From assembly GCA_028689615.1 (NCBI GenBank), contig JAQVCV010000001.1, forward strand, positions 133,697 through 197,696: a DNA stretch of 64,000 nt, in the 5' to 3' direction. The notes below the pieces were generated by a model. The model worked only from the letters and a program-made list of their open reading frames with translations. It searched no databases and had not been told where the DNA came from. Made by a program: the position numbers and the translations under genes. Shown one piece after another: positions 1,153 to 19,604 of the stretch (position 1 is the first letter of the stretch; every line of letters starts with the position of its first letter). The stretch is from Bacteroidales bacterium. GTDB taxonomy: Bacteria > Bacteroidota > Bacteroidia > Bacteroidales > TTA-H9.

Positions 1153-2853
1153 CTAATCATGCTTAATCAGCAGGCTTCCCGGCGGTGGCGCCGGATGGCT
1201 GGTGAAGTGCATGGCGTCAGCAGCGGAGCAACCCTGGGCTGTGGTAACGGTTACGGAATAGGTTCCGGTTGACATCACCACCAGGGTGGAGCTGGTGGCT
1301 CCGGTGTTCCACTGGTAGGTGTAGCCTGCGCCGCTTCCGGCATCGAGCAACACCGATTCGCCCGCGCAACGGATCAGGTCGGGCCCCAGATCAACCTGGG
1401 GGCGCGGGTTTACGGTTAGCACATCGGTGCGGGTGCTGTCGCAGCCCGTAAGCAGACTGGGGCCGCCACTCAGCCAGGTACCGCTGGTTTTGCGCCATGC
1501 CCCGGCAAGCCAAAGGCTGTCGCCCTGGCACAGGGTGTGGGTGTAGAAGGTTGATGCATCGCGATGAACCACCAGGTTGAGAGGCGTTAAGGCCTGGCTC
1601 AGGGCATACCACCAGGTGTTGATGGTGTTGTCGTTGCCGGCAGCGTTAAGCCAGGTGTGGCATCCGTTGGTGGGCGAAACACACCCGTTGAGCTGCAAAC
1701 CTCCTCCGGTGAGCAGCGTATCAACCCAATACGTTTTAGGCGTAGGACCCGTGGGGCGCACCAGGTTGATCTTGATGCCCCCGCACTCTTCAGCATCGAA
1801 AAGGGGGAGGTTGGTCAGGCCGGCTGTTACCTGCCCCTCTACACGCACCGGGGTTCCGTTGGCAACCGGTTGCCCCAGGCCATTCAGCCCGTTCCACACG
1901 AAAGTGTTCAAACCCGGGCTGACCGAGCCTGCCAAACTCACATCCTCGGGCTGATACCCCGGCAAAGGATTCACATGCACCATCAGATCGGCCACTCCAT
2001 ACGAATTGACCCCTATCACCAGATTGATCTGTCCACTGCAACCTTGCGGAGTTCCCGTGAAACTGGTGACACCTCCCAGACTTCCATTCGGAAAAACCGA
2101 TGCATCGGGGTTGTTGAGAAACACTTTGTACTGCCCGTACTGAACACGCCCCGGTTGCGACAAACGGTCGTAGGTGAGGTTGCCGGTGTTGGTGCATCCG
2201 GTGGCATTGCTGCACACCCCAAATATGTAGGGGTAGAAGTTGTTGAAGCTGGCTTCAGTCACAATCATATCGTCGGAATAGATGTAAAACTTCCCTTTGA
2301 ATTTGCGTGTTTGGCTCATGGTGCTGAAAACCCAGTTTTTCGACCACAGCCTGCCGTTGATGGCCACGTTGGCAGCGGTGCTTACTGTTACATCGAAAAA
2401 ATGAACGTTGAGTTTTCCTGAGGCAGGCACCACAAACTCGAAGTAATAGTCGCCCGTGGTGAGGGGCTGGTGCATCAGGGCATTGTAGCCGCCGGTAGCA
2501 ATGGCCGAAGGTCCGGCACAAGCCTGGTTGTAATCGGCCAGGTAGCCTGGCGATCCCGGGCCGAGCGTTCCGGTCATCACGGCCACCCCCGACGGATCGA
2601 AAAGGGTGTAGGTGAGGCTCATGCTCCATTCCATCCCGAACCCAAACCAAATCTTTTCGGAGGTGCTGGCCACCCGCACGTTGAGACGACCCTCTTCGCC
2701 GGCACAGGCAGCAGCAAAAGCCGGATAAGGCCCAAAATTGCAATGGGGCCACAACTCGCATACATCAGTCGAGGCGGGCATCACTTGTTTGGTGCCTTCG
2801 GCGAAGGTCAGAATGGGAATCAGCAATACAGCAATGAACAAGAGGAGACGCAT
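1153..2853 (-). CDS. Secreted protein, unrecognised N-terminal region, C-terminal Ig-like module ending ...LIKHD
   Basis: 566-aa ORF with signal peptide MRLLLFIAVLLIPILTFA. The last ~85 aa (VDLGPDLIRCAGESVLLDAGSGAGYTYQWNTGATSS...) align with the C-terminus of the 26519-27901 protein. Confidence 0.8.
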   Translation of the reverse strand: MRLLLFIAVLLIPILTFAEGTKQVMPASTDVCELWPHCNFGPYPAFAAACAGEEGRLNVRVASTSEKIWFGFGMEWSMSLTYTLFDPSGVAVMTGTLGPGSPGYLADYNQACAGPSAIATGGYNALMHQPLTTGDYYFEFVVPASGKLNVHFFDVTVSTAANVAINGRLWSKNWVFSTMSQTRKFKGKFYIYSDDMIVTEASFNNFYPYIFGVCSNATGCTNTGNLTYDRLSQPGRVQYGQYKVFLNNPDASVFPNGSLGGVTSFTGTPQGCSGQINLVIGVNSYGVADLMVHVNPLPGYQPEDVSLAGSVSPGLNTFVWNGLNGLGQPVANGTPVRVEGQVTAGLTNLPLFDAEECGGIKINLVRPTGPTPKTYWVDTLLTGGGLQLNGCVSPTNGCHTWLNAAGNDNTINTWWYALSQALTPLNLVVHRDASTFYTHTLCQGDSLWLAGAWRKTSGTWLSGGPSLLTGCDSTRTDVLTVNPRPQVDLGPDLIRCAGESVLLDAGSGAGYTYQWNTGATSSTLVVMSTGTYSVTVTTAQGCSAADAMHFTSHPAPPPGSLLIKHD

Positions 2854-2945
2854 TGGGAGAGGGGAGTGGGGAGTGGGGAGTGGTTAGTGGATAGTGGGGA
2901 GTGAATAGTGGGGAGTGGGGAGTGGGGAGTGGTTAGTGGGGAGAA
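2854..2945. repeat. AGTGGNN heptamer array (AGTGGGG/AGTGGTT/AGTGGAT/AGTGAAT)
   Basis: Read directly. Fills the whole space between the start codon of 1153-2853 and the 3' end of the four-helix-bundle gene. Confidence 0.9.
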
Positions 2946-3301
2946 GGAAGGGATTTTAGAAGCCCGTGAATCATTTTGTTTATTTCTTCAGCTTGGCCAA
3001 GTAACAAATGGCTTTTTTCATCATCTAAAAAGCCTAATTGTTGCGCTAAAATAACCAAGGTTTCTAACTCTGCCAGCGAACCTCTTGAAATACCAAGAAA
3101 CTGCCTGAATTCACCAGTGGTATTCCTTGCTTGCCCTTCGGCGATATTCGCAGCCACGGAAACGGCTGCCCTTCGAATTTGCGAAACTAAGCCAAATAGC
3201 TCCTCTTTTGGAAAGGTTGAGGAAAACTTGTATGATTGCTTGGTCAATTCCATAGCTCTTTGCCAAACAATCAGTTCCCGGAAATTTCTTACTTTTTCCA
3301 T
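2933..3301 (-). CDS. Four-helix-bundle protein (23S rRNA intervening-sequence protein family)
   Basis: 122 aa. FRELIVWQRAMELTKQSYKFSSTFPKEELFGLVSQIRRAAVSVAANIAEGQAR...FLGISRGSLAELETL is the hallmark pattern of this family (from memory). Confidence 0.9.
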   Translation of the reverse strand: MEKVRNFRELIVWQRAMELTKQSYKFSSTFPKEELFGLVSQIRRAAVSVAANIAEGQARNTTGEFRQFLGISRGSLAELETLVILAQQLGFLDDEKSHLLLGQAEEINKMIHGLLKSLPSPH

Positions 3302-3302
3302 A

Positions 3303-3640
3303 TGTTTAAGTGGTTGGTGGATAGTGGATAGTGGGGAGTGGTTAGTGGACAGTGGGGAGTGGGGAGTGGTTAGTGGGGAGTGGTTAGTGGGGAGTGGACA
3401 GTGGGGAGTGGACAGTGGGGAGTGGTTAGTTCCGAAAGCCCCGATCGCTATCGAGGGAAGTGACTCGTCGGGAGGGAAGTGGACAGTAGCTCGCGTCAGC
3501 CACTACTCACTACTCACTACTCACTACTCACTACTCACTACTCACTACCCACTACTCACTACTCACTACTCACTACCCACTACCCACTACTCACTACTCA
3601 CTACTCACTACCCACTACCCACTACTCACTAACCACTATC
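3303..3640. repeat. Imperfect ~340-bp palindrome built from heptamer arrays around a unique centre
   Basis: AGTGGNN heptamers at 3303-3432. Unique centre with hairpin CCCCGATCGCTATCGAGGG at 3439-3457. CACTAC(T/C) heptamers at 3494-3640, whose reverse complement is AGTG(A/G)GT. Confidence 0.85.
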
Positions 3641-4077
3641 TTCCAAACCCTCCTTTCCCCCTTGCACTCCACCCTCAGCAGGTAGGTGCCGGAAGCCAGC
3701 GATTCAACATTGAGGGTGTTGGCGGCTGTGAGGTTCCCGAAGCTCAGCACCGGGCGGCCGCTAATGTCGCACAGGTGGGCGGTGGCGGTGGCATCGCCCA
3801 GGCGGGTGATGTCGAGGTGGAGGTTTTGCTTCACGGGGTTGGGATAGACCGTTACCTCGCTCAGCAACTCAACCTCATCGGTGGGTTTGAACTCAGGCAG
3901 CAAAAATTCTGCCGTGTCGCCGGCGGTTTGTTTCACCTCCTTCACCTCTATGAAGCGCTGGGTTCGGTTGCCCGAGGCGTCGTAGGTGAAGCGGACGGTT
4001 TGGTTTGCCTGCGAGAAAACGTTGCCGGCAAACAGAACAACTACAAATAATAAGGAAAAAATGGTTTTCATATGCAA
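3622..4077 (-). CDS. Small secreted protein: signal peptide + one YD repeat + T9SS type-A C-terminal sorting domain
   Basis: MKTIFSLLFVVVLFAGNVFSQ, then RFTYDASGNRTQRF. C-terminus VTVYPNPVKQNLHLDI...LCDISGRPVLSF...LASGTYLLRVECKGERRVWKIVV fits the Por_Secre_tail pattern. Confidence 0.85.
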   Translation of the reverse strand: MHMKTIFSLLFVVVLFAGNVFSQANQTVRFTYDASGNRTQRFIEVKEVKQTAGDTAEFLLPEFKPTDEVELLSEVTVYPNPVKQNLHLDITRLGDATATAHLCDISGRPVLSFGNLTAANTLNVESLASGTYLLRVECKGERRVWKIVVSE

Positions 4078-4085
4078 AAAATGGT

Positions 4086-4619
4086 TTATTCATCCTTCAT
4101 TAAAATATTAAAAGAACTGGGAACCTCTGTACATCGCCGAAAACAGAAGGTATCCTGAGTGGTTAGAACCTGATTGAAAATATTCTTTCTTGAGAAAAAA
4201 AGCAAAGTAGAATCATTCAAAACCTTTGCCCGAAGCTCCTCCGATTTGAACATTTGAAACTTATCGCGACCACCCCATACACGATTTACTATAAGAGTGT
4301 CATTTCTGAAGCAATAAATTCCCCAGAAATATGGTATAAAACGAGCACTATTGTTGACATTACAACTTTTTATTATGCTGTCTTTGCTAATGACATCATT
4401 GTAGAAATAACCATCCGGGAAATAGATTTGTCTTTCCAAATCATCATTACCGAATTCCTCCAAGTAAACCCCATTTATTATCCTATTGTATAAGCCGGAA
4501 TAATTCTTTTTTATAAGCAATATTGATTTATCATAGGGGAACCTTTCTGTTCTACATGAATATAATATCAGCAGCAACAATAAAGCTGCTTTAATGTGAT
4601 GTAGTCTTATATTTACCAT
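4086..4619 (-). CDS. Putative immunity lipoprotein for orphan toxin 2
   Basis: Start chosen at MVNIRLHHIKAALLLLLILYSC (lipobox Cys). Its ATG overlaps the toxin stop (ATGGTAA). AT-rich. Shares LND(S/T)TLL and other motifs with 6587-7189. Confidence 0.65.
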   Translation of the reverse strand: MVNIRLHHIKAALLLLLILYSCRTERFPYDKSILLIKKNYSGLYNRIINGVYLEEFGNDDLERQIYFPDGYFYNDVISKDSIIKSCNVNNSARFIPYFWGIYCFRNDTLIVNRVWGGRDKFQMFKSEELRAKVLNDSTLLFFSRKNIFNQVLTTQDTFCFRRCTEVPSSFNILMKDE

Positions 4620-6346
4620 AAGGTATATCTTTGCTGTGTGCCAAAATGTGAGTATGCTTTCCAATAATTATTAAGTTTCCTGAAAGCTGGTTGTGGACTA
4701 ATAATGCCATGTGCAAACTTGTTCTGAAAAACATGTCTTATATTTTCGGAATTTACACCAAAGGAAAAGCTCTTATAACCAAAAGTCAAAGCTCCTAACC
4801 TGAACCTTTCATCATCGACATTTCCACCACTATAGTAACCGTTGGGATACAATTCAGGCTTATCTGTTTTTATCTTACCAGTTTTATAGTCCCCAGTCAT
4901 AATATTTAATCGAATGTTGAAATCTTTATACGCCAGTTGAACAGCGGCCGTTCGATAAGCATCACCACCATCGTTTAAACCTCCACCATGATAATCGGTA
5001 AAGGGTGCGCCATCATTTTCGTATCGGGCAGAAAACTCACCAATTCTTAATTTGTAGCCAGCAACCTGCTGTGAAGGATATGTACCTTTACCAAATCTTG
5101 TTGAGTAAACTCCAAATCCAAAATCACCCTTTCCCATTTCCCAGCCACCACCAATACGTGAGCCACCTTTGGCCATCATGCCAACGTCTAATCCGATGAC
5201 ATTATAGAAACCATTAGCGTCCCTGTACGCATAGGTTGCGCCAACACTTGCACCTACATCGAAGCCTTGTGTTCCAAACATAAAAGCAGGCGAAAGAGAA
5301 AGAGAAAAATTTTCAGTTAACGGAATGTTTATTGGCGGAATAAGATTGCTGGCAACGGCATTAATTGCCATGTTTTGAAGATAGCCAGCAACTGCTTTGC
5401 TTGATGCCGCTGTCATTCCTTCGCCAGCGGTTGCTATACCACATGTATTGTAACCAACCCAGGCAGAGGCAGCAAATCCGGCGCCTTGGGCCAACGCTGG
5501 AGCACCCCAATTCCCTGAACTGATTCCGTGAGAAACATAGCCAAAAACAAAACCAACGCCGGCAACTACTAAATCATCTAAACCAAACCATTCCCCGCTC
5601 GGATCAGTATATCTCAAAGGATTATTCAAACAATAGCTGTACCGGTTCAAATTCTGGGGATTATCGGGAGCCTGTATGTAGGGGTCAGCAGAAAGAAATC
5701 TTCCTACCAACGGGTCATAGGCACGGCCGTTCATGTTGATGAGGGTGAACGGATAGAGGTGCTCATGGAACGTGAAACCGCGATCAATCAGGGGCGAGGG
5801 GATGGAGGCGAGGGACGTGTAGGGCTGCCAAGTGGCGGGGTCGCGCCTATTGCCCTCCCGAAGGCTCGGGATTGGTTCAACTAGGGGTTTTGTTTCGCTG
5901 TGCTCACAAAACCCAAGTTTCACGCAACACGCGTCGTAGCTCAGTTCCTGCACCACATTGCACTCGGCATCGGTGATGAGGTTGGGAGAACCCAAATGGT
6001 CGGTATAGATGTAGTACATCTTCCCTTCGTTGTTCTGGTCAATCACGTACATGGCAAACAGCGAGCCATCGCCACCGGTGAGGTAGTGGATCTTTTGGAT
6101 GGTGCCGGCTGCGGGTTTCGAGAGGTTTTCGAGGCCGTCGCCAACCGGGTTTCCGGCCAATGCCACTCCCAATCCTTGTTTTTCATGAGTGGGGTTGTTT
6201 AGTGCGGTAGTGGCCAGCCTTTCACTGGTGCGCCGCCGCCCGGTTTGTTGCTGAAAAGCCTGGGTTGTACCACGTCGCGATGACTTCCCCTGCACCCCTT
6301 GGGGATGGGATGAAGGGGAGGCTGATGGTGGTTTGTGGGCGATCAT
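4613..6346 (-). CDS. Orphan Rhs core-tip + C-terminal toxin cassette 2
   Basis: Contains the conserved block IQKIHYLTGGDGSLFAMYVIDQNN.GKMYYIYTDHLGSPNLITDAECNVVQEL...NPLRYTDPSGEW (5588-6145), then an unrelated Gly/Ser-rich tail. Lacks the long RHS body of the main gene. Confidence 0.8.
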   Translation of the reverse strand: MIAHKPPSASPSSHPQGVQGKSSRRGTTQAFQQQTGRRRTSERLATTALNNPTHEKQGLGVALAGNPVGDGLENLSKPAAGTIQKIHYLTGGDGSLFAMYVIDQNNEGKMYYIYTDHLGSPNLITDAECNVVQELSYDACCVKLGFCEHSETKPLVEPIPSLREGNRRDPATWQPYTSLASIPSPLIDRGFTFHEHLYPFTLINMNGRAYDPLVGRFLSADPYIQAPDNPQNLNRYSYCLNNPLRYTDPSGEWFGLDDLVVAGVGFVFGYVSHGISSGNWGAPALAQGAGFAASAWVGYNTCGIATAGEGMTAASSKAVAGYLQNMAINAVASNLIPPINIPLTENFSLSLSPAFMFGTQGFDVGASVGATYAYRDANGFYNVIGLDVGMMAKGGSRIGGGWEMGKGDFGFGVYSTRFGKGTYPSQQVAGYKLRIGEFSARYENDGAPFTDYHGGGLNDGGDAYRTAAVQLAYKDFNIRLNIMTGDYKTGKIKTDKPELYPNGYYSGGNVDDERFRLGALTFGYKSFSFGVNSENIRHVFQNKFAHGIISPQPAFRKLNNYWKAYSHFGTQQRYTLW

Positions 6347-6392
6347 GAGGTTGGGGTTAGAGCGACAAAGTTAGAAAAGATTTGTAAAACTT

Positions 6393-6566
6393 AGAAGGAT
6401 TTGATAGTTTCATTAAGGAAAGGGAGAGCTGCCCTCACCTCCTTCACTTCTATATAGCGCTGGGTTCGATTACCCGAGGCATCGTAGTCGAAATAGACGG
6501 TTTGGGAGAAATCGCATAAAGAAATAGTTATTATAATTAAAAATAATGAAACTACAGACTTCATAT
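6393..6566 (-). CDS. 57-aa leader ORF: signal peptide + single YD repeat (copy of the 5' end of 3622-4077)
   Basis: Hand translation: MKSVVSLFLIIITISLCDFSQTVYFDYDASGNRTQRYIEVKEVRAALPFLNETIKSF*. Below the 60-aa cutoff of the ORF track. Whether it is expressed is unknown. Confidence 0.5.
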
Positions 6567-6586
6567 GATAATAGTTTAAGAATTAA

Positions 6587-7189
6587 TCAATCTTTTCGTT
6601 TTCTGCTTTCATGAACACCTCTCTGGTACCAGCGTTTGTTTATATACCAGATTTTTGTACTGTCAGGTTTTAATTTGGTTTTATAAAATCTAAAAACGTT
6701 CGGCTCATTCTTTTCAAATTCAATATCATAGTGTGTGTTCTTGTTGGAAGTAATTAGTAACGTTGTGTCATTTAACAAAACCCCTTTGCTAATAAAAAAC
6801 TGACGAACAATAAACTCAGAATAGTTCAATCCAAAACCTTCAGAATAAAATGTGTCATTTTTTATATAATAATCTCCCCAGATTTCATCAGCATCATATT
6901 TGTACCATTTCAAAATCGTTTTCATACAACTATCCGGATCAGACCAAAACTCTGAACCTCTTGGTAAAGCAGAACCAATAGTCCGTTTCTTCCCATCTGC
7001 ATAAAAAGCTATTCCTCCGGATTTATTTACTGAAACATAAATTCCATCATATCTTAATTTGAATCTATTATCACTCTTATAAACTGGTTGTTTAAATACC
7101 GAAAAGTCTTTCCTAATTGTGATAGGTATAAAACAAGAACTAAGAGTAATCAACATCAAAAGGCCAACAGATACGTTAATTTTCTTCAT
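6587..7189 (-). CDS. Putative immunity lipoprotein for orphan toxin 1
   Basis: Start chosen at MKKINVSVGLLMLITLSSC (lipobox), 1 nt after the toxin stop at 7191-7193. AT-rich. Paralogous to 4086-4619. Confidence 0.65.
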   Translation of the reverse strand: MKKINVSVGLLMLITLSSCFIPITIRKDFSVFKQPVYKSDNRFKLRYDGIYVSVNKSGGIAFYADGKKRTIGSALPRGSEFWSDPDSCMKTILKWYKYDADEIWGDYYIKNDTFYSEGFGLNYSEFIVRQFFISKGVLLNDTTLLITSNKNTHYDIEFEKNEPNVFRFYKTKLKPDSTKIWYINKRWYQRGVHESRKRKD

Positions 7190-7190
7190 T

Positions 7191-8798
7191 TCAAAACGGG
7201 TAAAGCGAAAAAGGATTAATATAACCACCTTGAAAAAACAAGCGAGAATCCGGACCTAATTCAGAATTAAAGTACGGTGAATGAACAATATGCTTATGTA
7301 AGCCATTCTGAAACAAATCCTGAACCCAGGGAGCGTCTATGCCTGTTCGTGAATTGGTGTTGCCGTTTCGGTATCCAAGGTATAAGCCTGCCCATAATCT
7401 GCTGCCAGAAGAGTAGGTGTATCTTTCCTTCTTATTTTTTCCCCAGATTGGAGACTCCCATGTTTCATTTCCGCCTTTAAAATAATCGGATTGTCTCTCT
7501 GCAACTGGCGGTGCGGTAGTGAATAAATTAAAACCAACAGTATGATTTCCAAGTCCTATTTCGGCGGCAGCAGTTCGTGCTTTATCCCCTCCAACAAAAG
7601 CATCATTTGTCATTCTAAAAGAAAAATCACCCTTCTGATAACCCACAGCCCAGTTGTTTTGTGGGTGGCTCCCCGAAAAAATTGTCCCGCCAAATGAGAA
7701 GTATTGATCGTTTGCCCTATCATAATAGGATATTCCTCCACTATAATTAAACCCACTAACCTTTGTAGCAGCCCGATCAATAAGATTACCAAAACCAGAC
7801 GAATAGCCAGCACCGAGATTAAAAGAAAAATCCCCAACGGCTACCGATGAGCTTGCATTGGCATAAAATCCACCCAAACCAAAGCCTGCCGAAGCACTAA
7901 AACCGCCATTGTTATATCCAACTGATAATCCAATATTGAATGGGTCTAGGCCAAATGAAAAGGAACCAAATGAAACTCGCGCACAACTGCTCATCCCGTT
8001 TGTTACAGTCATCGATTTATTAAAAGCACTTGCTAAAGCATTACTTTTACCTTGAATAACATTACTCAAAAACTCAGCAGTTGATGCGATTATCATAAAT
8101 GGGATTGCAAGGAACTCCCCGCTCGGATCAGTATATCTCAATGGATTATTCAAACAATAGCTGTACCGGTTCAGATTTTGTGGGTTATCGGGAGCCTGTA
8201 TGTAGGGGTCAGCAGAAAGAAATCTTCCTACCAACGGGTCATAGGCACGGCCGTTCATGTTGATGAGTGTGAACGGGTAGAGGTGCTCATGGAAAGTAAA
8301 TCCCCGGTCAATGAGGGGCGAGGGGATAGAGGCGAGGGACGTGTAGGGCTGCCAGGTGGCAGGATCGCGCCTGTTGCCCCACGCATCAAAACTTAACTCC
8401 TGAACCACATTACACTCGGCATCGGTGATGAGGTTAGGTGAACCCAAATGATCGGTGTAGATGTAGTACATCTTCCCCTGGTTGTTCTGATCAATCACGT
8501 ACATGGCAAACAGCGAACCATCGCCACCGGTGAGGTAGTGGATCTTTTGGATGGTGGCTTCGCCGGGTTTCTCGATGATTTCGAAGCCGTCGCCGACCGG
8601 GTTTCTGGCCAATGCCACTCCCAACCCATGCTTTCCAGAAGCGCCGTTGTTCAATGCGTTAGTGGCCAGCCTTTTCCTGGTGCGCCGCCTCCCAATTTGT
8701 GGCGGAGAAGCCCGTCTTGTTCCCTTTACCACAGACTCCACTGGCACCCGTTGGGGGTGTGGTGCAGAGGTGGCAGAATGTGGTTTGTAGGCGAACAT
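7191..8798 (-). CDS. Orphan Rhs core-tip + C-terminal toxin cassette 1
   Basis: Conserved core block at 8112-8597 ending NPLRYTDPSGEF, then a divergent tail. Start set at MFAYKPHSA by homology with MIAHKPPSA of cassette 2 (ORF track start is 8819). Confidence 0.8.
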   Translation of the reverse strand: MFAYKPHSATSAPHPQRVPVESVVKGTRRASPPQIGRRRTRKRLATNALNNGASGKHGLGVALARNPVGDGFEIIEKPGEATIQKIHYLTGGDGSLFAMYVIDQNNQGKMYYIYTDHLGSPNLITDAECNVVQELSFDAWGNRRDPATWQPYTSLASIPSPLIDRGFTFHEHLYPFTLINMNGRAYDPLVGRFLSADPYIQAPDNPQNLNRYSYCLNNPLRYTDPSGEFLAIPFMIIASTAEFLSNVIQGKSNALASAFNKSMTVTNGMSSCARVSFGSFSFGLDPFNIGLSVGYNNGGFSASAGFGLGGFYANASSSVAVGDFSFNLGAGYSSGFGNLIDRAATKVSGFNYSGGISYYDRANDQYFSFGGTIFSGSHPQNNWAVGYQKGDFSFRMTNDAFVGGDKARTAAAEIGLGNHTVGFNLFTTAPPVAERQSDYFKGGNETWESPIWGKNKKERYTYSSGSRLWAGLYLGYRNGNTNSRTGIDAPWVQDLFQNGLHKHIVHSPYFNSELGPDSRLFFQGGYINPFSLYPF

Positions 8799-8821
8799 GG
8801 GGTTGGTTTGGAGCGACAAAG

Positions 8822-8992
8822 TTAGAAAAGATTTGTAAAACTTAGAAGGATTTGGTTTTCATTCAGGAGTGAGGGAACCTGCTTCACCTCCTTCACCTCT
8901 ATGAAACGCTGGGTGCGGTTGCCCGAGGGGTCGTAGGTGAAATAGACGGCTTGGGAGAAAGCGCTAAAGGTTGTTAGCAGTGCAACGAACAT
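8822..8992 (-). CDS. 56-aa leader ORF: signal peptide + single YD repeat (second copy)
   Basis: Hand translation: MFVALLTTFSAFSQAVYFTYDPSGNRTQRFIEVKEVKQVPSLLNENQILLSFTNLF*. Not in the ORF track (under 60 aa). Confidence 0.5.
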   Translation of the reverse strand: MFVALLTTFSAFSQAVYFTYDPSGNRTQRFIEVKEVKQVPSLLNENQILLSFTNLF

Positions 8993-9085
8993 AACAGTAA
9001 GTTTTCCCTTATTCTCATATGTTTGATGTAATTATATTAATTCATTAGACATTAGGCTCAATCTTGTTTATTAATGATAGGTACA

Positions 9086-9736
9086 TCAATTTGAGTTTTC
9101 TCTATCCCATTCTTTTTGCACCTTCAATAAAGATTTAATCATTAAATCATAAATTCTTTTATTTTTCAATCGAACAGGTTCAAGAAATTCAGGAAGTTTT
9201 TTTGGAGGGCATGGGGAGTCGAAATAAAAGAACCAAAACCCTAAAACCGATGAATTGTCAAACTTAATTAGATTTTTAATAAAAACATCTAGATTCTCTT
9301 GAAGTAAATTATTTGCTCCTAATTTAAAGAAATTAACAGCATCTGCCTGCCAGCATCCGTTCTTAGCAATATTAATGATACTGATAAATCTCCTATTTAT
9401 ATCTATTTCATGCAAAGTGTAATAAATATCTATAATATGATGCTTAGCATTATCATACAGAATTGATTTGTAAAATTTAGTTGATATTTCATTATCAATA
9501 CATTTAACAGAGTCTTGATATCCATAAATTTTTACAAACTGGGCAAAAGTTTTTGGGAAAGCCTTAAAAAACAAATCTCTATAAATTCTATTTGAGTCAA
9601 CATTATCAGTCCGATCAATTAATTTCACAAGATGAGACAAAGTGTCAGCCTTAGAATTAATTTTGCTATCGATTGTTTGTGAGTAAGTAGTCGAAAACAC
9701 AACTAATAAAGAAATGTAGAAAAACAATCTTTTCAT
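9086..9736 (-). CDS. Putative exported immunity protein for the main Rhs toxin
   Basis: 216 aa, signal peptide MKRLFFYISLLVVFSTTYSQ. Starts 15 nt after the Rhs stop. AT-rich. No recognised family. Confidence 0.6.
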   Translation of the reverse strand: MKRLFFYISLLVVFSTTYSQTIDSKINSKADTLSHLVKLIDRTDNVDSNRIYRDLFFKAFPKTFAQFVKIYGYQDSVKCIDNEISTKFYKSILYDNAKHHIIDIYYTLHEIDINRRFISIINIAKNGCWQADAVNFFKLGANNLLQENLDVFIKNLIKFDNSSVLGFWFFYFDSPCPPKKLPEFLEPVRLKNKRIYDLMIKSLLKVQKEWDRENSN

Positions 9737-9751
9737 TTTCAGTAAATATTA

Positions 9752-12700
9752 TTAATACAAATTAAAATAAAAAGTTAGCCCTCTTTGTTCAGCATGAAGA
9801 TAAAGCTGTTTAAACATATTCATTGCATCGCCGCTGCTCCATACTGCATTAGCTGAATAACTTGTACCGGGCAAGAAACATGCCTTAGTATTTGACGGAA
9901 AATTTCCCGTATGAATTAATACCTTTGTACGACCCGGAATATTCATAATTTCAAAAGCATCAGGATATTTTACGGAGCTATAGCGGGAAACTTCATAAAC
10001 ACCTGCTTGAATTCTAAGTCCAGAACCTTGAACAGTGGAGGATGGCCCTGCCGGTTCTAAAAAAAATCCTTCTGTATTATCATCAATACAATAACGGCTT
10101 ATGGTAGATTGGTCTGTTTCAGCAAATCGCTCAACATTAAAATAAAATTTATTTTCGTTTACTATTGGATTAATTGTTGACTTTAGATTACCTGTACTCA
10201 ATTCCGAGTTACTAAAATTCTGGCTAACGAACGGTAGTCGTTCGGGTGCCTTAAAAATTCTATCACCATTCCAAAAAGTTCTGCCACCATTTCTTGCGTC
10301 TAATCCACCAACAAGCCCACCAAAAGCAGCACCGGTAAATCCACCAATTAATCCGCCAAAGATGGCACTTTTAAACGCCTCGTCACCGGTTTTACCCTGA
10401 AGAAGAGCATTACCATATCCAGCTACTGCTCCTGAAGCAAACCCTGCTCCACCACCAATGGCAGCACCCGACCAAAAACTTGTTGCAGCAACCTGAGCAG
10501 TAGAACTGCCGATTGCACCTGCCCAGAAAGAACCACCTGCATAGGCAGAACTTATTCCTGCACCTACACTTGCGCCAATTGCTCCTGCCGCAGCACCAAT
10601 CCCAAAACTTAACAAACCCTTTGCGTTAAACTCACACCCACCCATTATCCAGTTGGCGATTCCGCCAATGATCATCGCTTCAAGAAAGAATTCACCCTGC
10701 GGATCACTATACCTCAATGGATTATTCAAGCAATAGCTGTACCGGTTCAAATTTTGGGGGTTATCGGGTGCCTGAATGTAGGGATCGGGGGAGAGGAAAC
10801 GGCCAACCAAGGGGTCATAAGCCCGGCCGTTCATGTTGATGAGGGTGAACGGATAAAGGTGCTCATGGAATGTGAAACCGCGATCAATCAGGGGCGAGGG
10901 GATAGAGGCGAGGGACGTGTAGGGCTGCCAGGTGGCAGGATCGCGCCTGTTGCCCCACGCATCAAAACTTAACTCCTGAACTACATTGCACTCGGCATCG
11001 GTGATGAGGTTGGGAGAACCCAAATGGTCGGTATAGATGTAGTACATCTTCCCCTGGTTGTTCTGATCAATCACGTACATGGCAAACAGCAAACCGTCGC
11101 CACCGGTGAGGTAGTGGATCTTTTGGATGGTGCCTTCGCCGGGTTTCTCGATGATTTCGAGTCCGTCGCCGACGAAGGTTTTTTTCGTGATAACTACATC
11201 ACTTTGAGTCAATTCCTGATAGGTTCTTTGGTGGTCATAACCATAAAAGATAGTCAAATGGTAAGGGGCCTCGGTAATGGAGGTCATCTTGTTGTAGGAA
11301 TTATAAGCAATGGTTTGTGGTGCTTGAGGCCATTGGGCAGGATTTGCATCAGCCGAAATAAGCGCATATGGGTTGCGCGTACCACAGTCGTACTGTGCAT
11401 CTTCAAAGATAAACCCTAAAGAATTACTTTTACCCATGACATTGCCTAAAAGATTGTAGTCAGTATTTCCGGATACTACCCCGTTTAGGTAGGTTACGTC
11501 CAACCGATCAAGATTATCGTAAGTGAACGACTCATGTAAGGTGGTAGAGCCGGCAATTTTCTTTCTCCAAGTCAAATTGCCCACATTGTCCCATTCGTAA
11601 AGCCTTTTAAACAGCTCAACATCCGCTCCTTTTTTTACGATCTGGGCTGTAAGCAACCCCCTGTCGTTTTCGAAAACCGATTCGGCTATAACACCATTGC
11701 CATGCAATGCCTTGGTTAGCCTGCCGTAGTTATCGGTGGCATTTACCGCCCAAAGCAGACATGGATCGTAACCACCCTTGTACAGTTTAGCAACTTCACC
11801 ATTGGGTGCATATTCCGTTAAAATGGTTAAGCCATCAGGAGTTTCCTTCCTTTTCACTCTGCTGAAAGGATCATAGGCAACACTCTGGGTATAATTGACC
11901 CCGTTGATTTGATTGGTTATCTGACTAACTCTGGCATACTCATCAAAGGTGTATTCGGTGGAGTGTCCAGGATAACTAACCGACCCCAGCAACCCGTTGC
12001 CAGAAGGTTTGTTATCATAAATCCAGTTTGTGGTACCTTCTGGTTCAATTCGCTTAGTCATCCTTCCCAGTATATCATATTGGTACGTTGTGGCCACGTC
12101 CTGCCGGGAATCGTCACGTGAAACCATTTGATCGAAAGCATCGAATTTAAAATCAATGGTTCCTGCTGCCGGATCAATAAGCTTTGTGCAATTGCCATGG
12201 CTGTCGTACTCGTTCACTATGCTGGTTTCCTGCGGTTGGCCTGAATGATAGGTGTTCACAACATTGCCATCACAGTCGTGTTGAAAAATCACACTACTAC
12301 CGCTCGCATCTTTGCTCTGGGTAAGCCATCCGGCAACGTTCTTAGTCTGAACGGTCTGGCGGGAAAACATGTCGGTGTATTTCGTAACCAGACCTTCATA
12401 CGTCACCGAAGTGGCGCCCCGGGAAGTGGTTGTAGCAACTACCCTGTCAAGGGCATCGTAGGTATAGGTGGTGGTAATATCGGAAAGAGAGGACAAGGCA
12501 TAATAATAGGCACTGGTCTGGGTATGCAGCCTTCCCCTCGAGTCATAGGTTTTGTCGCTATACATCTTTTTCCCTTTAGCATCATAGCTTACAGTTCGAA
12601 GCTCCTGTCCCATGCGGTTGAAAAAAGTAAGTGCTTCAGAGGTTCCTGATGTTTTGGTCCAAACATAGTACAACCCTTCGGGCGGATTGTCGTCATGCTC

Positions 12701-16453: not shown

Positions 16454-17812
16454 CTATTTGTTTTGCAACAATGCTTTCAATTCGTTGATTTGATTTTGCT
16501 GTTGTTCTATGGTTTTTTGCTGTTGAATCATATATAAGGTGAGTTCTTCAACTTTTTTTAGCAGGGTGGCTTGCATTTCGCCCACAGCTATTCCTTCACT
16601 TGCAACCTCTTTGGCTGATGGCACGTCGGGAAGGCGGCCGTTTGTGGTAACAAACCTTTCAACTTCCGACAATGCTGGCAGATTATACTGGGGAGAGAAC
16701 ACATAATCGGGCCATGGTGACGACACCTCGACTTTAATCTCCTTGCATCCAATAACTCCATTTACAGCTAAGGTGTAATCGAAGGTATTGCTTGTGTTTA
16801 TGCCCACCTTTAATTTATCGGTATATATACCACCTATGCCGTTGTTGATCCAATATTGAGGAAACAAGGTTGCGGCATCGGTCCAATTCCCATAACCCGC
16901 GCGATCGCTAATCAAGATTTTGCCTTCATCAGCATTTGTTCGCAATTGGAAGGTATCGGTAACCATTCGAGGGGCAGCTATCAATTTTGAGGCACCCACT
17001 ATGGCAGTAGTTATAGTATTGTGCACAACAGCATATTTACTGATGATTTCTCCAGTAGGATTGATAACGAAGGCCAAATTGGATGAGTAACCCGGAATTT
17101 CTCCTATCGGCTCCCCCTCCCCTTTTTCGATGGGATTTGTAATATCTCTCAAAGCCCAGAATTTGAAACATGAAGCTTCAGCGGAGTTAACAAAGTTGAC
17201 CGATTTCATTCGCTTTGGGTCAAAGCGAACAACAATGCTGTCACCTGATCCGATTTGTAACTGGGTTAAAGGGGCTGTATCTAAGCCGATACCCAGTTTA
17301 TCAGTGAATACTCCATTGCCAACCACCTGAAGAGTGGTAGCAGGCACATTGTCGGAGCCAATACCTAATTTTCCAGAAAATATACCATTCCCTGACACAT
17401 GCAGTGAAGCCGCAGGCTGAAAAGCCGCCGTGCCGCCAATGGCGGTTTTCGAACCAAAATAGTTCACATAGTTGCTCCCTGTTTGATACAATCCGTATGA
17501 AGAACCGACGTTTAATACCTCGAAGGAGAATAATGGGCTAGATAACCTAAGTCCTTTGGTGTTATTTGTACCGTCAACTTTTAGATCTAAGAGAAAGTCA
17601 GTACTACTAAAAGTGCTGGGGTTGTATGGGAATAACAAACGGGGAGGGTAACCCGACATACCATTATAATACTCATACAATTTTGTATCAACATAGGTGG
17701 CAGGGGTGGTTTTCTTTTGTATCAGACCACTTGTCTGTCCAAAGAGCAACTGGTTAGAACACAACAACAATGCGGCAAGGATACCTGCACAAACTTTTAC
17801 TTCTTTTTTCAT
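16454..17812 (-). CDS. Secreted tail-fibre-like protein with Bacteroidota-type C-terminal WPDYVF / coiled-coil domain
   Basis: Signal peptide present. Repeats LHVSGNGIFSGKLGIGSDNVP / LQVVGNGVFTDKLGIGLDTAP. C-terminus SSPWPDYVFSPQYNLPALSEVERFVTTNGRLPDVPSAKEV...LLKKVEELTLYMIQQQ. Confidence 0.75.
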   Translation of the reverse strand: MKKEVKVCAGILAALLLCSNQLLFGQTSGLIQKKTTPATYVDTKLYEYYNGMSGYPPRLLFPYNPSTFSSTDFLLDLKVDGTNNTKGLRLSSPLFSFEVLNVGSSYGLYQTGSNYVNYFGSKTAIGGTAAFQPAASLHVSGNGIFSGKLGIGSDNVPATTLQVVGNGVFTDKLGIGLDTAPLTQLQIGSGDSIVVRFDPKRMKSVNFVNSAEASCFKFWALRDITNPIEKGEGEPIGEIPGYSSNLAFVINPTGEIISKYAVVHNTITTAIVGASKLIAAPRMVTDTFQLRTNADEGKILISDRAGYGNWTDAATLFPQYWINNGIGGIYTDKLKVGINTSNTFDYTLAVNGVIGCKEIKVEVSSPWPDYVFSPQYNLPALSEVERFVTTNGRLPDVPSAKEVASEGIAVGEMQATLLKKVEELTLYMIQQQKTIEQQQNQINELKALLQNK

Positions 17813-17844
17813 AAGGTTTTAAAATTTTGAGATGATTCGTGCTG

Positions 17845-17852
17845 CAAACGTA
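17845..17852 (-). promoter_or_regulatory. Bacteroidota-type -7 promoter box (TAnnTTTG)
   Basis: Minus-strand TACGTTTG about 33 nt upstream of ATG 17812. Confidence 0.4.
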
Positions 17853-17892
17853 CAATATTTTTTTAAAACTGCAAGATTCCCGAAAAAAACTT

Positions 17893-17900
17893 TAGTTTTG
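17893..17900 (+). promoter_or_regulatory. Bacteroidota-type -7 promoter box (TAnnTTTG)
   Basis: TAGTTTTG 15 nt upstream of ATG 17916. Divergent from the box at 17845. Confidence 0.4.
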
Positions 17901-17915
17901 TCGAAAAAAAATTCC

Positions 17916-19604
17916 ATGATTACACACCATCTTTCTTTAACATTGAGTTTGAACAGTCTTTTTCGTTGCTTTGCAAGCTGCTGTTCAATATTTTTTCTTT
18001 TCGCCTTTACCCCAAACACAAAGCTTTTGGCCCAAACCCCCATCCCCTTCACCGAAACCTGGGAATCGGGCAGTTTTGAAACCAACGGGTGGACCGTTTC
18101 GCAGGGAAGCGGACAGTGTGCGGTTGTCAACCAGGGTTCACCGGGCAGCAATTGGTCGGCGGGCTTCACTCTGGCTGCAGGTGTACCGGCCGGCGACTCG
18201 GTAGCTTTACTCTCGCCGTGGATTGATGCCCAACAGGCTACCGACGGGTTGCTGGTGCTGGCATTCGACTACAAACTGCTGAACCCCGACAGCACCCAAT
18301 GGCCGCTGCTGAAAATGTATGGCGATGCAGGCAACGGTTGGGTGAAGCTCTACGAGCTCACCTACGACGCTTCGCTCGACTGGAGGGAGTTGAAGGCCGA
18401 TCTCCCCATGGCTAAAGGGCAACAGGTGCGCCTGATGTGGGTGGCCGCGAAAGAATCGGACACCGCCGCGGGGCAATGGTTTATCGACAACATCAGCCTG
18501 GCTCAACCGCAATCCACCCCTGTTATCAACCTCGCTGCATGGGCCATCAACCAACCCGAGGCTTACAAGGCGGAACTCAACTGGAACAAACCAGTTGTCA
18601 ACCCTTTGGCGGAGCCGCTTCGCGATTCAACGCTAAGCTATTTTAACCTATATCTTCCTATGTATAATGGTATGCTTTACCAGTACACCGGCACCGGAGT
18701 TGGTATCTTTTTCGACAACAAAACTTATCAATCTTCTATACTCTCGGAAGTTAGTTTTTTCTATAAATATCCTCCCGGAGAATTTTCAGGCCGGTCAAGT
18801 TTCAGGGTTCAACTGATGAACCTCGAAACACGCCAATTGGTTGGAACCTTCGGCCCCTTCACCACCAGTTATGCCCAGGGGTGGCAACACATACCCCTGA
18901 ACCTGACCCAGATGCCACAGGTTGATTCGCTGGCAGTGCTCATCGAACCGCTTACTGAATATAATTTCAGCAGAGGAAATTCAAACCAGCCCGGAGTTGC
19001 CTTTTGGGAAGATTATACCTACCCCTACCAACACTCCATTGCAATCAGTTTGTATGACACGAGTTATATACTTATCTCAAATTTTGGTGAGCTGATTATG
19101 GAACTCACCCTGCTCACCCCCGATGGCCGGCAGACAACGGTTTCGCCCTCCTCTTACTCGGTAAACCGCTGGCAACAAAGCCTGCCGCTGCAATACCTCC
19201 CCATGGCCACGGTTGACAGCAACACCACCCAATGGTTCGACACCCAGGTGGAACGGGGCTGGTACAGCTACTTTGTCACGGCCAACTATGCCGATGGTTC
19301 CTCGCTCAACAGCGACACGGTGGCCGTGGAGATGCCCTCGGGACAGGGGTTGGTGGAGCCTTCCGCCGGTTTGCCCAACGTGGCTCCCAACCCGGTGCAG
19401 GGCAGGGTGCTGAGGCTGTCGGATGCAAATCAGGCTGTTTCGATAAAGGTTACCGATCTTTTGGGAAGAACCATCGCGGAAACAACCTCTCAGACTCTGC
19501 TCGTGAACGGACTGCCGCTGCCCCAAATCAACACGGGCTGCTTTCTGGCTCATATCACGCTGGCCAATGGGCAAACCGTTTGCCGTAAATTTGTGGTTCA
19601 GTAA
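17916..19604 (+). CDS. T9SS cargo protein (choice-of-anchor-J-like N-terminus, type-A C-terminal sorting domain)
   Basis: Start at MITHHLSL...FLFAFTPNTKLLAQ. PFTETWESGSFETNGWTV near the N-terminus. C-terminus VAPNPVQGRVLRL...VTDLLGRTIAE...GCFLAHITLANGQTVCRKFVVQ. Confidence 0.85.
   Translation: MITHHLSLTLSLNSLFRCFASCCSIFFLFAFTPNTKLLAQTPIPFTETWESGSFETNGWTVSQGSGQCAVVNQGSPGSNWSAGFTLAAGVPAGDSVALLSPWIDAQQATDGLLVLAFDYKLLNPDSTQWPLLKMYGDAGNGWVKLYELTYDASLDWRELKADLPMAKGQQVRLMWVAAKESDTAAGQWFIDNISLAQPQSTPVINLAAWAINQPEAYKAELNWNKPVVNPLAEPLRDSTLSYFNLYLPMYNGMLYQYTGTGVGIFFDNKTYQSSILSEVSFFYKYPPGEFSGRSSFRVQLMNLETRQLVGTFGPFTTSYAQGWQHIPLNLTQMPQVDSLAVLIEPLTEYNFSRGNSNQPGVAFWEDYTYPYQHSIAISLYDTSYILISNFGELIMELTLLTPDGRQTTVSPSSYSVNRWQQSLPLQYLPMATVDSNTTQWFDTQVERGWYSYFVTANYADGSSLNSDTVAVEMPSGQGLVEPSAGLPNVAPNPVQGRVLRLSDANQAVSIKVTDLLGRTIAETTSQTLLVNGLPLPQINTGCFLAHITLANGQTVCRKFVVQ

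Follow-up and report, generated by a model that had tools for sequence, protein, structure and literature searches.

Why do shortened copies of a small, secretion-tagged gene stand in front of the orphan toxin genes of an Rhs array, and why is such a gene tied to Rhs toxins at all? Both questions are raised by a 64,000-nucleotide stretch of DNA from a Bacteroidales bacterium (TTA-H9; contig JAQVCV010000001.1, positions 133,697 to 197,696), referred to here as the window. The locus, whose array-relevant genes all lie on the minus strand, fits an Rhs orphan array: a full-length Rhs gene with core and toxin (the main gene), a downstream open reading frame (ORF), truncated orphans with other toxins, and toxin exchange. 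It also carries an intact gene, called mini here, that encodes a signal peptide, a YD hairpin, a linker and the C-terminal sorting domain (CTD) of type A of a type IX secretion system (T9SS). A truncated copy of mini, called a leader, precedes each of the two orphans (Table 1). An initial annotation of this DNA had noticed the three copies and proposed that they arose either by serial insertion of cassettes into mini or by tandem duplication of a unit of leader, orphan and immunity gene. The observation is confirmed by the analysis reported here, and the interpretation is partly supported.

Taken as a whole, the array seems best explained as conserved punctuation blocks alternating with exchangeable cassettes, with mini as the resident member of a gene family; our confidence in this explanation somewhat outweighs our doubt. 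Each block, of ~850-930 nt, would begin at the mini signal-peptide cleavage site and run through the YD unit. There it would lose the mini linker and CTD by a single deletion or junction event, and continue through a junction with a 43-nt promoter-like element, a weakly constrained stretch of 67 codons and an Rhs core stub that ends at DPSGE. Between blocks, the variable cassette would comprise a toxin gene segment, an immunity gene and the 5' end of the following mini copy, as far as it encodes the signal peptide. Because cassettes sit between blocks, they are flanked by a conserved arm on each side, the left one being Rhs core and the right one the YD block. Homologous recombination in these two arms would exchange the cassettes, and the truncated leaders would be remnants and recombination arms rather than functional proteins.

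The three copies are readily recognized. A 29-mer from the YD unit matches only positions 3956-3984, 6458-6486 and 8907-8935, as against none expected in shuffled sequences, which bears out the three minus-strand YD copies reported previously. In a self-comparison by BLAST, leader2 (8954-8880) aligns with mini (4003-3929) at 89% over 75 nt and leader1 (6505-6435) aligns with mini (4003-3933) at 84.5% over 71 nt. The similarity to mini ends in both leaders at one and the same codon, after GAGGTGA(A/G), which encodes EVKEVK/R; a common breakpoint after IEVKEVK/R had been described correctly. Past this point, local alignment with shuffled controls found nothing further in common with mini, or with the main Rhs gene upstream of VGDG. 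The coordinates given earlier for leader2 stand, those of leader1 shift from 6393-6566 to 6391-6564, and mini, formerly 3622-4077 (151 aa), most likely starts at the ATG at 4071; the resulting length agrees with public protein P0001.

The sequences into which the two leaders diverge are homologous to each other. The unit 8969-8116 aligns with 6521-5592 at 82% and then 93% identity, and the 43-nt element is identical in both, a longer conserved stretch than the initial annotation had recognized. That annotation had also treated the tails as conserved in sequence. However, after EVKEVK the leader ORFs proceed in different frames to different stops and therefore do not end in a conserved peptide. 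Given identical breakpoints and homologous junctions, the internal truncation of mini happened only once; as judged from these alignments, the block evidently arose once and was then copied.

Upstream of the YD unit the picture is different from that first described. The leaders had been said to reproduce the mini signal peptide, but the three copies lack homology in the part that encodes it, and conservation sets in at the FSQ cleavage site. Over 104 nt that include part of the signal peptide, leader2 and the full-length mini of another locus, L150, are 82.7% identical; thus, this part of leader2 matches the L150 allele and not the resident mini. L150 and a further leader-like allele, L151, come from short metagenome contigs with too little sequence to show the upstream immunity context.

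These results bear on serial insertion, by which orphan and immunity cassettes would have entered a fixed, perhaps site-specific, position in the resident mini, each duplicating its 5' end. Two leaders that stop at one codon and an intact mini at the distal end of the array are what this scenario predicts. Nevertheless, we disfavor it and consider it very unlikely, since homologous and partly identical sequence beyond the breakpoint indicates one event rather than two, and since the signal-peptide parts of the leaders are unrelated to the resident mini, that of leader2 resembling the allele of another lineage. Furthermore, no integrase or recombinase domain was found in the neighboring genes by Pfam and related scans, and two loci described below have, respectively, whole mini genes between cassettes (L011) and the same unit with other cassettes (L152).

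Divergence between the two units is strikingly uneven. Both orphan stubs match the Rhs_assc_core model TIGR03696 and are 88-92% identical to positions 11173-10700 of the main gene, with 91.6% for that of orphan2 (8597-8124). Across the blocks, the units retain 82-93% nucleotide identity, whereas the toxin, immunity and signal-peptide segments have no nucleotide similarity. The two Ntox23 toxins share only 27% identity over 91 aa, although their flanks are 82-93% identical, and the immunity proteins linked to them share 37% over 51 aa. G+C content steps at the block/cassette boundaries, from 52-60% in blocks to 27-45% in cassettes.

A plain tandem duplication of leader, orphan and immunity gene, followed by divergence through point mutation without any exchange of cassettes, would yield two collinear units with a junction in common, and it would fit the presence of Ntox23 in both toxins and the faint similarity of the immunity proteins. 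We nonetheless rate it as unlikely. Point mutation does not readily account for the mosaic divergence or for base-composition steps at the same boundaries, and in L152 the orphan slot holds the main toxin of the window at 98.9% identity next to a block at only 86-90%. What survives of the duplication proposed earlier is the copying of a leader-junction-orphan unit; cassette exchange has to be added for toxins and immunities that are almost unrelated.

L152 was reached through the sole distant match to the orphan N-terminal stretch. It derives from a close relative, with a flanking gene that is 93.4% identical to that of the window, and it carries in order an orphan with the same N-terminal stretch, an immunity gene, a 69-aa leader, the 43-mer and a second orphan (B). 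This leader has a full signal peptide and the same truncated tail, and 121 consecutive nucleotides, which continue through the 43-mer and include copy 1 of the element, are identical to the window. Orphan B at 3988-4796 of L152 is 98.9% identical to positions 10955-10147 of the main gene in the window, which cover the end of the core and the DUF5675 toxin, whereas the upstream block is 86-90% identical. Therefore, a single cassette fills the main slot of the window and an orphan slot of L152. In L152, unit-like sequence gives way to main-like sequence exactly at a 72-nt in-frame insert. As far as alignments can tell, cassettes have thus evidently moved from one genome to another as well as between orphan and main positions.

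The 72-nt insert interrupts the orphan1 stub and is predicted to fold at -32.7 kcal/mol (z -2.8). An identical copy (100%) occupies the same site in orphan B of L152 (L152 3916-3987), where the flanks are ~85% identical; neither the main gene, nor orphan2, nor any of 150 other loci contains the insert. It may represent a mobile mini-element, act as a regulatory structure or mark a recombination hotspot.

An arrangement of the same kind is found in L011, a Bacteroidales chromosome, in which the main Rhs gene and its immunity gene are followed by five repeats of a complete mini, ~240 nt, a short core stub, a toxin and an immunity gene. Each of the five minis is a whole gene rather than a remnant, and each precedes an orphan. 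The conserved block of L011, ~890-980 nt, starts at the boundary between signal peptide and mature mini protein and ends at DPSGF, and the signal peptides vary together with the cassettes. The blocks, but not the cassettes, are likewise shared by L012, L078 and L079.

Within the block, the N-terminal stretch of the orphans has no counterpart in the main Rhs gene, to which homology begins at VGDG (11173). The earlier description of a shared basic N-terminus of ~65 aa was right in this respect, and the stretch is open in all four known copies. However, its ratio of nonsynonymous to synonymous substitution rates (dN/dS) is 0.64-0.95 in six pairs, as against 0.04-0.07 for the adjoining stub. A constrained basic N-terminal domain was accordingly rejected as a candidate: dN/dS is near 1, and a HMMER search of 1.84 billion representative sequences returned only two relatives, both of which are orphans of close relatives.

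The 43-nt element is probably a promoter, judging from its sequence, and would keep the orphan toxin/immunity modules transcribed. The Bacteroidetes -7 consensus is TAnnTTTG, and the box TAACTTTG matches it exactly. Sequences of this form occur within 120 nt upstream of 10 of the 34 long ORFs in the window compared with 4.9% of random windows, and similar boxes lie 5' of the first orphan in L152 and in another locus, L153. A sigma-70 promoter scan, which is not appropriate for Bacteroidota, produced 12 promoter-like sites as against 13.2 expected in shuffled sequence, and a terminator scan produced 3 terminator-like sites as against 6.2 expected; both were set aside.

The leaders might instead be functional genes whose products would be small YD peptides (36-42 aa when mature) that are exported by Sec, lack a CTD and serve, for instance, as partners of the Rhs protein in the periplasm or as its regulators. 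In keeping with this, the YD blocks have a dN/dS (omega) of 0.07-0.21, the signal peptides of leader1 and of the L152 leader are complete, an ORF of leader2 type is retained with an identical tail in L152, and both leader ORFs were called as genes in a public assembly. Several of these points lose weight on inspection. The identity with L152 extends over nucleotides (121/121) and is thus uninformative on protein constraint. Low omega may be inherited from intact mini alleles; indeed, low values for YD blocks and core stubs are expected if these diverged as parts of intact genes in different lineages. In addition, the leader2 stub has no charged n-region, the upstream ATG at 9018 is in another frame, the leader1 and leader2 tails use different frames, and none of the best 120 matches to the mini family is a homolog without a CTD. 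Functional leaders are therefore improbable, to about the same degree as plain duplication.

Several observations weigh against the arrangement of blocks and cassettes that we prefer. In most loci mini lies upstream of the Rhs gene, where it cannot act as a right-hand arm, and a two-arm arrangement is therefore lineage-specific. The -7 box lacks a clear -33 element, and the 284-nt junction had no homolog by BLASTN or TBLASTX in 151 loci other than L152 and L153, and none in the rest of the window by the same searches. The 67-codon stretch may be translated, being open in every known copy, and the low omega of the YD blocks together with intact signal peptides in leader1 and the L152 leader leaves room for functional leader peptides. 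Thus, leader peptides or the 67-codon extension might actually be made. Finally, all of the sequences are metagenome-derived.

The second question, why a T9SS-tagged gene is tied to Rhs toxins, concerns mini itself. Its protein matches PF18962 (E 3.9e-11, residues 77-149, at the very C-terminal end) and TIGR04183 (E 5.1e-13). The signal peptide MKTIFSLLFVVVLFAGNVFSQ has a lysine-containing n-region, a hydrophobic core and a small-x-small site followed by Q. The mature N terminus is the YD hairpin (FTYDASGNRTQRF), for which Pfam gives a sub-threshold RHS_repeat match, and a linker of ~25 aa leads to the CTD. By its CTD and Sec signal peptide, mini is a predicted T9SS type-A cargo. An AlphaFold2 model has a helix at residues 3-19 in the signal-peptide region and a confident beta-sandwich for the CTD (pLDDT 77-91), whose best fold matches in the PDB are CTDs of translocon-bound T9SS substrates (8glk_D, 8gl8_D, 8glj_D) and the mirolase CTD. 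The YD segment is modeled as a hairpin with low confidence (pLDDT 47-61), as would be expected of a segment that needs a partner.

A first protein search with mini returned eleven relatives of 119-170 aa, on whose contigs the mini gene adjoins TcB/TcC-like Rhs genes. Wider scans of one genome per species and of metagenomes, seeded with the mini protein alone, added 143 further loci. Carriers include Draconibacterium, Maribellus, Prolixibacteraceae, Prevotellaceae, Hoylesella timonensis, Muribaculum, Dysgonomonas, Chitinophagales, Cytophagales and Flavobacteriales. From 101 distinct tails composed of YD unit and CTD, 81 informative loci were obtained, and all 81 have an SpvB/TcdB-type Rhs gene on the same strand beside the family member. 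The Rhs gene or stub starts within 2.5 kb downstream in 66 of these loci, and in the other 15 it ends within 4.5 kb upstream. The remaining 20 tails are on contigs too short to judge, and no locus with enough flank lacks an Rhs gene. The linkage thus spans several orders and two gene orders, always on the same strand, which substantiates the claim that a T9SS-tagged YD mini-protein is physically tied to the Rhs array.

When 63 diverse members were aligned (27% mean identity), the only invariant residues outside the CTD were Y-D-A-S-G-N-R and one further R. We define the family by a length of ~130-170 aa, the motif [FY]xYDASGNRxxR 17-36 residues from the start, a CTD at the end and, as the immediate neighbor on the same strand, an SpvB/TcdB-type Rhs gene or orphan. 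The mini of the window, which follows orphan1 and its immunity gene, has all of these features. A profile search retrieved at least 756 protein clusters at E<=1e-6; the best 120 matches are all 130-263 aa long and are named simply "T9SS type A sorting domain-containing", "YD repeat-containing" or "hypothetical". In three loci the YD and CTD tail forms the end of a larger, surface-type protein encoded beside the Rhs gene: a YadA-head and coiled-coil protein (L055), a protein with a lamin-tail domain (L069) and a protein of at least 1392 aa (L022). Sequence comparisons thus identify mini as the resident member of a large, hitherto unnamed Bacteroidota family that always lies beside Sec-exported SpvB/TcdB-type Rhs toxin genes. 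In family members, a Sec signal peptide is followed at the mature N terminus by one invariant YD hairpin (YDASGNRxxR), then by a variable linker and a T9SS type-A CTD.

In a further locus, L146 (9938-13460), a mini truncated within its CTD overlaps a partial, frameshift-split Rhs gene that starts mid-shell. As read from its sequence, this is an independent deletion derivative of a mini-Rhs pair, and such deletions do occur.

What the protein might do is suggested by the Rhs product. In the window, the main Rhs protein consists in order of a signal peptide, SpvB, FG-GAP, TcdB_toxin_midN, RHS repeats, Rhs core and a C-terminal DUF5675 toxin, and by this domain content it is a TcB/TcC-like fused cocoon. 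Such a cocoon cannot carry a CTD, because its C terminus is the encapsulated toxin. It is possible, although we propose this tentatively and with considerably more doubt than confidence, that mini is a dedicated trans-acting T9SS adaptor or anchor and that its gene, in some lineages, doubles as the downstream homology arm for toxin-cassette exchange. The T9SS would export the intact mini protein. In the least certain steps, its exposed YD hairpin would dock onto the Rhs cocoon by beta-strand addition, and the bound protein would either take the cocoon through the T9SS in piggy-back fashion or tether it at the T9SS or cell surface. In Tc toxins, TcB and TcC are joined through a beta-sheet that runs on from one into the other, a precedent for binding of a YD hairpin in trans. 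The proposal is in keeping with the strict linkage of a T9SS cargo in which one YD hairpin accounts for the invariant passenger residues, and with the occasional fusion of the YD and CTD tail to fiber-like neighbors. Against it must be counted that the argument for an adaptor or anchor is drawn solely from synteny, the invariant motif and the fusions.

Conversely, mini might be a neighbor without a functional link to Rhs, such as an unrelated small T9SS surface protein kept by chance or co-transfer. Bacteroidota generally have many T9SS cargo genes, which are also enriched around polymorphic toxins of another kind (TANFOR, PMC7073777), and the link between mini and Rhs comes from sequences rather than from experiments. 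We consider this quite unlikely, given that all informative loci are linked across several orders, in both gene orders and always on one strand, that the sole invariant residues outside the CTD are those of a YD repeat, the building block of the Rhs shell, and that full mini copies travel with cassettes in L011.

How the locus relates to known systems can now be considered. Orphan toxin/immunity arrays of Rhs (and CdiA) proteins, reportedly the subject of work by Poole et al. in 2011 and Koskiniemi et al. in 2014, are alike in that a full-length rhs gene is followed by 5'-truncated C-terminal fragments, each with a stub of core homology and its own immunity gene. They are alike also in that toxins change places between the main gene and the orphans, in the known arrays through homologous recombination in the core; here the exchange is seen between L152 and the window. 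The present array differs in having a mini copy (truncated here, complete in L011) and a promoter-like element before each orphan, in having a second, downstream homology arm, and in a variable unit that includes the signal peptide of the next gene. As judged from its sequence organization, it is an Rhs orphan array in which a second partner gene supplies the punctuation. An integron-like, site-specific cassette array was considered and rejected, as no integrase or recombinase domain was found in the neighboring genes and the boundaries are homology arms in coding sequence.

The cocoons of Tc toxins (TcB/TcC), said to have been described by Busby in 2013 and Meusch in 2014, share with the main Rhs protein, in the same order, a signal peptide, SpvB, an FG-GAP propeller, TcdB_toxin_midN, an RHS shell, the Rhs core and a C-terminal toxin. 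In the window, however, B and C are fused in one polypeptide, the toxins are polymorphic and have immunity genes, and the partners are a small T9SS cargo and a 452-aa protein. No TcA-type family match was found in the flanking genes or the long ORFs of the window, for which reason we do not class the locus as a Tc toxin complex. Zhang et al. 2012 placed such proteins under a "TcdB/TcaC" export mode and listed Ntox23 as specific to Bacteroidetes (PMC3482391).

The initial annotation knew of no precedent for a T9SS-tagged gene in this setting. Adjacency of this kind had in fact been reported by Steele & Moran 2021, who noted that most Apibacter rhs genes with an SpvB/TcdB N terminus adjoin genes with T9SS type-A sorting domains and are probably associated with the T9SS (PMC8125069). 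By its description, that case matches ours in Rhs class, in the adjoining type-A CTD gene and in the T9SS inference. It is confined to a single sentence (PMC8125069), which gives no family, YD motif, phylum-wide survey, fusions or copies between cassettes; the YD unit and the array punctuation are not described there. Our literature search found no account of the YD mini family, its invariant motif, its fusions or the copies between orphans, and the Apibacter remark was the sole precursor that it turned up.

Genes with T9SS CTDs are also enriched near the TANFOR toxins of Bacteroidetes (Jana et al. 2020; PMC7073777). These, too, are polymorphic toxins without a CTD of their own, and export by the T9SS, either independent of a CTD or assisted, was raised for them (PMC7073777). 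However, the TANFOR scaffold is not Rhs, and the neighbors are large SprB-repeat proteins rather than a stereotyped YD protein of 150 aa. Mini resembles ordinary T9SS type-A cargo in having a signal peptide and a C-terminal Por_Secre_tail beta-sandwich, but its passenger of ~50 residues consists of the YD hairpin and linker, with no enzyme or adhesin domain.

Table 1. Features of the array and adjoining genes, with positions in the window
Feature	Position	Strand	Description
452-aa secreted protein gene	16454..17812	-	First gene of the locus; from ORF inspection
Main Rhs gene, 2194 aa	9752..16336	-	From Pfam scan
Presumed immunity gene of main toxin, 216 aa	9086..9736	-	From position directly after toxin
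Leader2	8822..8992	-	Degenerate 14-aa signal-peptide stub; YD block 8954-8880; out-of-family tail
43-nt element, copy 1	8811..8853	-	Identical in both units; -7 box TAACTTTG at 8824-8817, 26 nt before orphan2 ATG
Orphan2, 535 aa from ATG	7191..8798	-	67 weakly constrained N-terminal codons; Rhs core stub 8597-8124; Ntox23 toxin
Presumed orphan2 immunity gene, 200 aa	6587..7189	-	From position
Leader1	6391..6564	-	Intact-looking signal peptide; YD block 6505-6435; tail in a frame other than that of leader2
43-nt element, copy 2	6360..6402	-	-7 box at 6373-6366, 27 nt before orphan1 ATG
Orphan1, 577 aa	4613..6346	-	67 weakly constrained codons; Rhs core stub with 72-nt insert; second, very divergent Ntox23
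72-nt in-frame insert	5856..5927	-	Inside AWGNRR motif of orphan1 stub; two hairpins
Presumed orphan1 immunity gene, 177 aa	4086..4619	-	From position
Intact mini gene, 149 aa	3622..4071	-	Signal peptide, YD hairpin, linker, T9SS type-A CTD
23S-rRNA-IVP/bAvd-like gene, 122 aa	2933-3301	-	Between mini and 566-aa genes; heptamer repeats on both sides
566-aa cysteine-rich secreted protein gene	1153-2853	-	Weak Ig/PKD-like matches

The 452-aa protein had no match in sequence searches of Pfam, NCBIfam, PHROG and PDB; a TAnnTTTG box lies 40 nt 5' of its ATG. Its C-terminal ~120 aa (PDYVF, coiled coil) correspond to a domain encoded just upstream of mini/Rhs pairs in ~25 loci from genomes and in further metagenome loci, and in L055 a protein with YadA-head repeats and a C-terminal region of this type is fused to the YD and CTD tail. 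Proteins of the 452-aa type may be a third component of the mini/Rhs system. The 216-aa protein encoded after the main toxin had no match in Pfam or NCBIfam, and its immunity role is presumed from gene position alone; its gene is AT-rich (27-30% G+C).

In L152 (1-1400) and L153 (1-320), an orphan-type gene, made up of a weakly constrained N-terminal part, a stub and a toxin and with its own TAGTTTTG box, lies directly beside the homolog of a 590-aa gene of the window. At that position the window carries the 452-aa gene and the main Rhs gene; either the main Rhs gene was deleted in L152 and L153, or it was inserted in the window. Homology between the window region separating the 590-aa and 452-aa genes and the upstream region of L152 is not convincing.

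Downstream of mini are heptamer repeats, the Avd/23S-IVP-like gene and the 566-aa gene. The repeats (GGGAGTG, AGTGGGG and CACTACT; 13-19 copies each) occupy 2855-2943, 3309-3430 and 3501-3631. In a relative, L070, heptamer repeats also follow mini and no Avd-like gene is called before the 566-aa homolog, for which reason the Avd-like gene looks inserted into a repeat tract. The 566-aa gene always follows mini in the clade of the window (L001-L004, L006, L010 and L070-L073) and is absent from other clades; searches of Pfam, NCBIfam, PHROGs and PDB sequences with its product gave nothing usable. No known RNA family was detected in 2800-9300, where the heptamer repeats gave only spurious sub-threshold matches.

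The remainder of the window encodes housekeeping functions (EF-G, Tsp protease, histidine kinases and GcpE), and the array is therefore chromosomal. A contig of a public Bacteroidales metagenome-assembled genome, L005, is identical across the whole array. No T9SS core gene is among the scanned ORFs of the window; a second, weak CTD protein is encoded at 17832-19601. The body of the main Rhs gene has a G+C content of 34-48%, compared with 50-65% for the 566-aa gene (1000-2800) and 52-60% for the conserved blocks. By composition, the whole Rhs gene, beyond the toxin tip, may thus be foreign to the genome. Long antisense ORFs cover Rhs core and junction sequences at 8448-8825(+), 5900-6202(+) and 11024-11419(+), and one of them was annotated in the public assembly as a gene of 125 aa (L005 3963-4340). 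Their recurrence reflects only the repetition of the sense sequence, and they are most likely annotation artifacts.

For annotation, the mini family deserves a name, and caution is advisable with the leader ORFs and the antisense ORF that were called in the public assembly. The array extends the model of Rhs orphans to cassettes with conserved arms on both sides and, apparently, their own conserved promoter-like element, and a pair of related genomes displays one toxin in the main slot and in an orphan slot. More broadly, the finding points to what appears to be an uncharacterized, widespread Rhs accessory protein. The abundant SpvB/TcdB-type Rhs toxins of Bacteroidota have a Sec signal but no TcA partner, no link to PAAR or the type VI secretion system and no T9SS tag, which raises the question of how they are exported. 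A T9SS cargo of ~150 aa that is always encoded beside them is a concrete candidate for an answer. If mini does act as an adaptor, it would represent a previously undescribed export route for polymorphic toxins across Bacteroidota.

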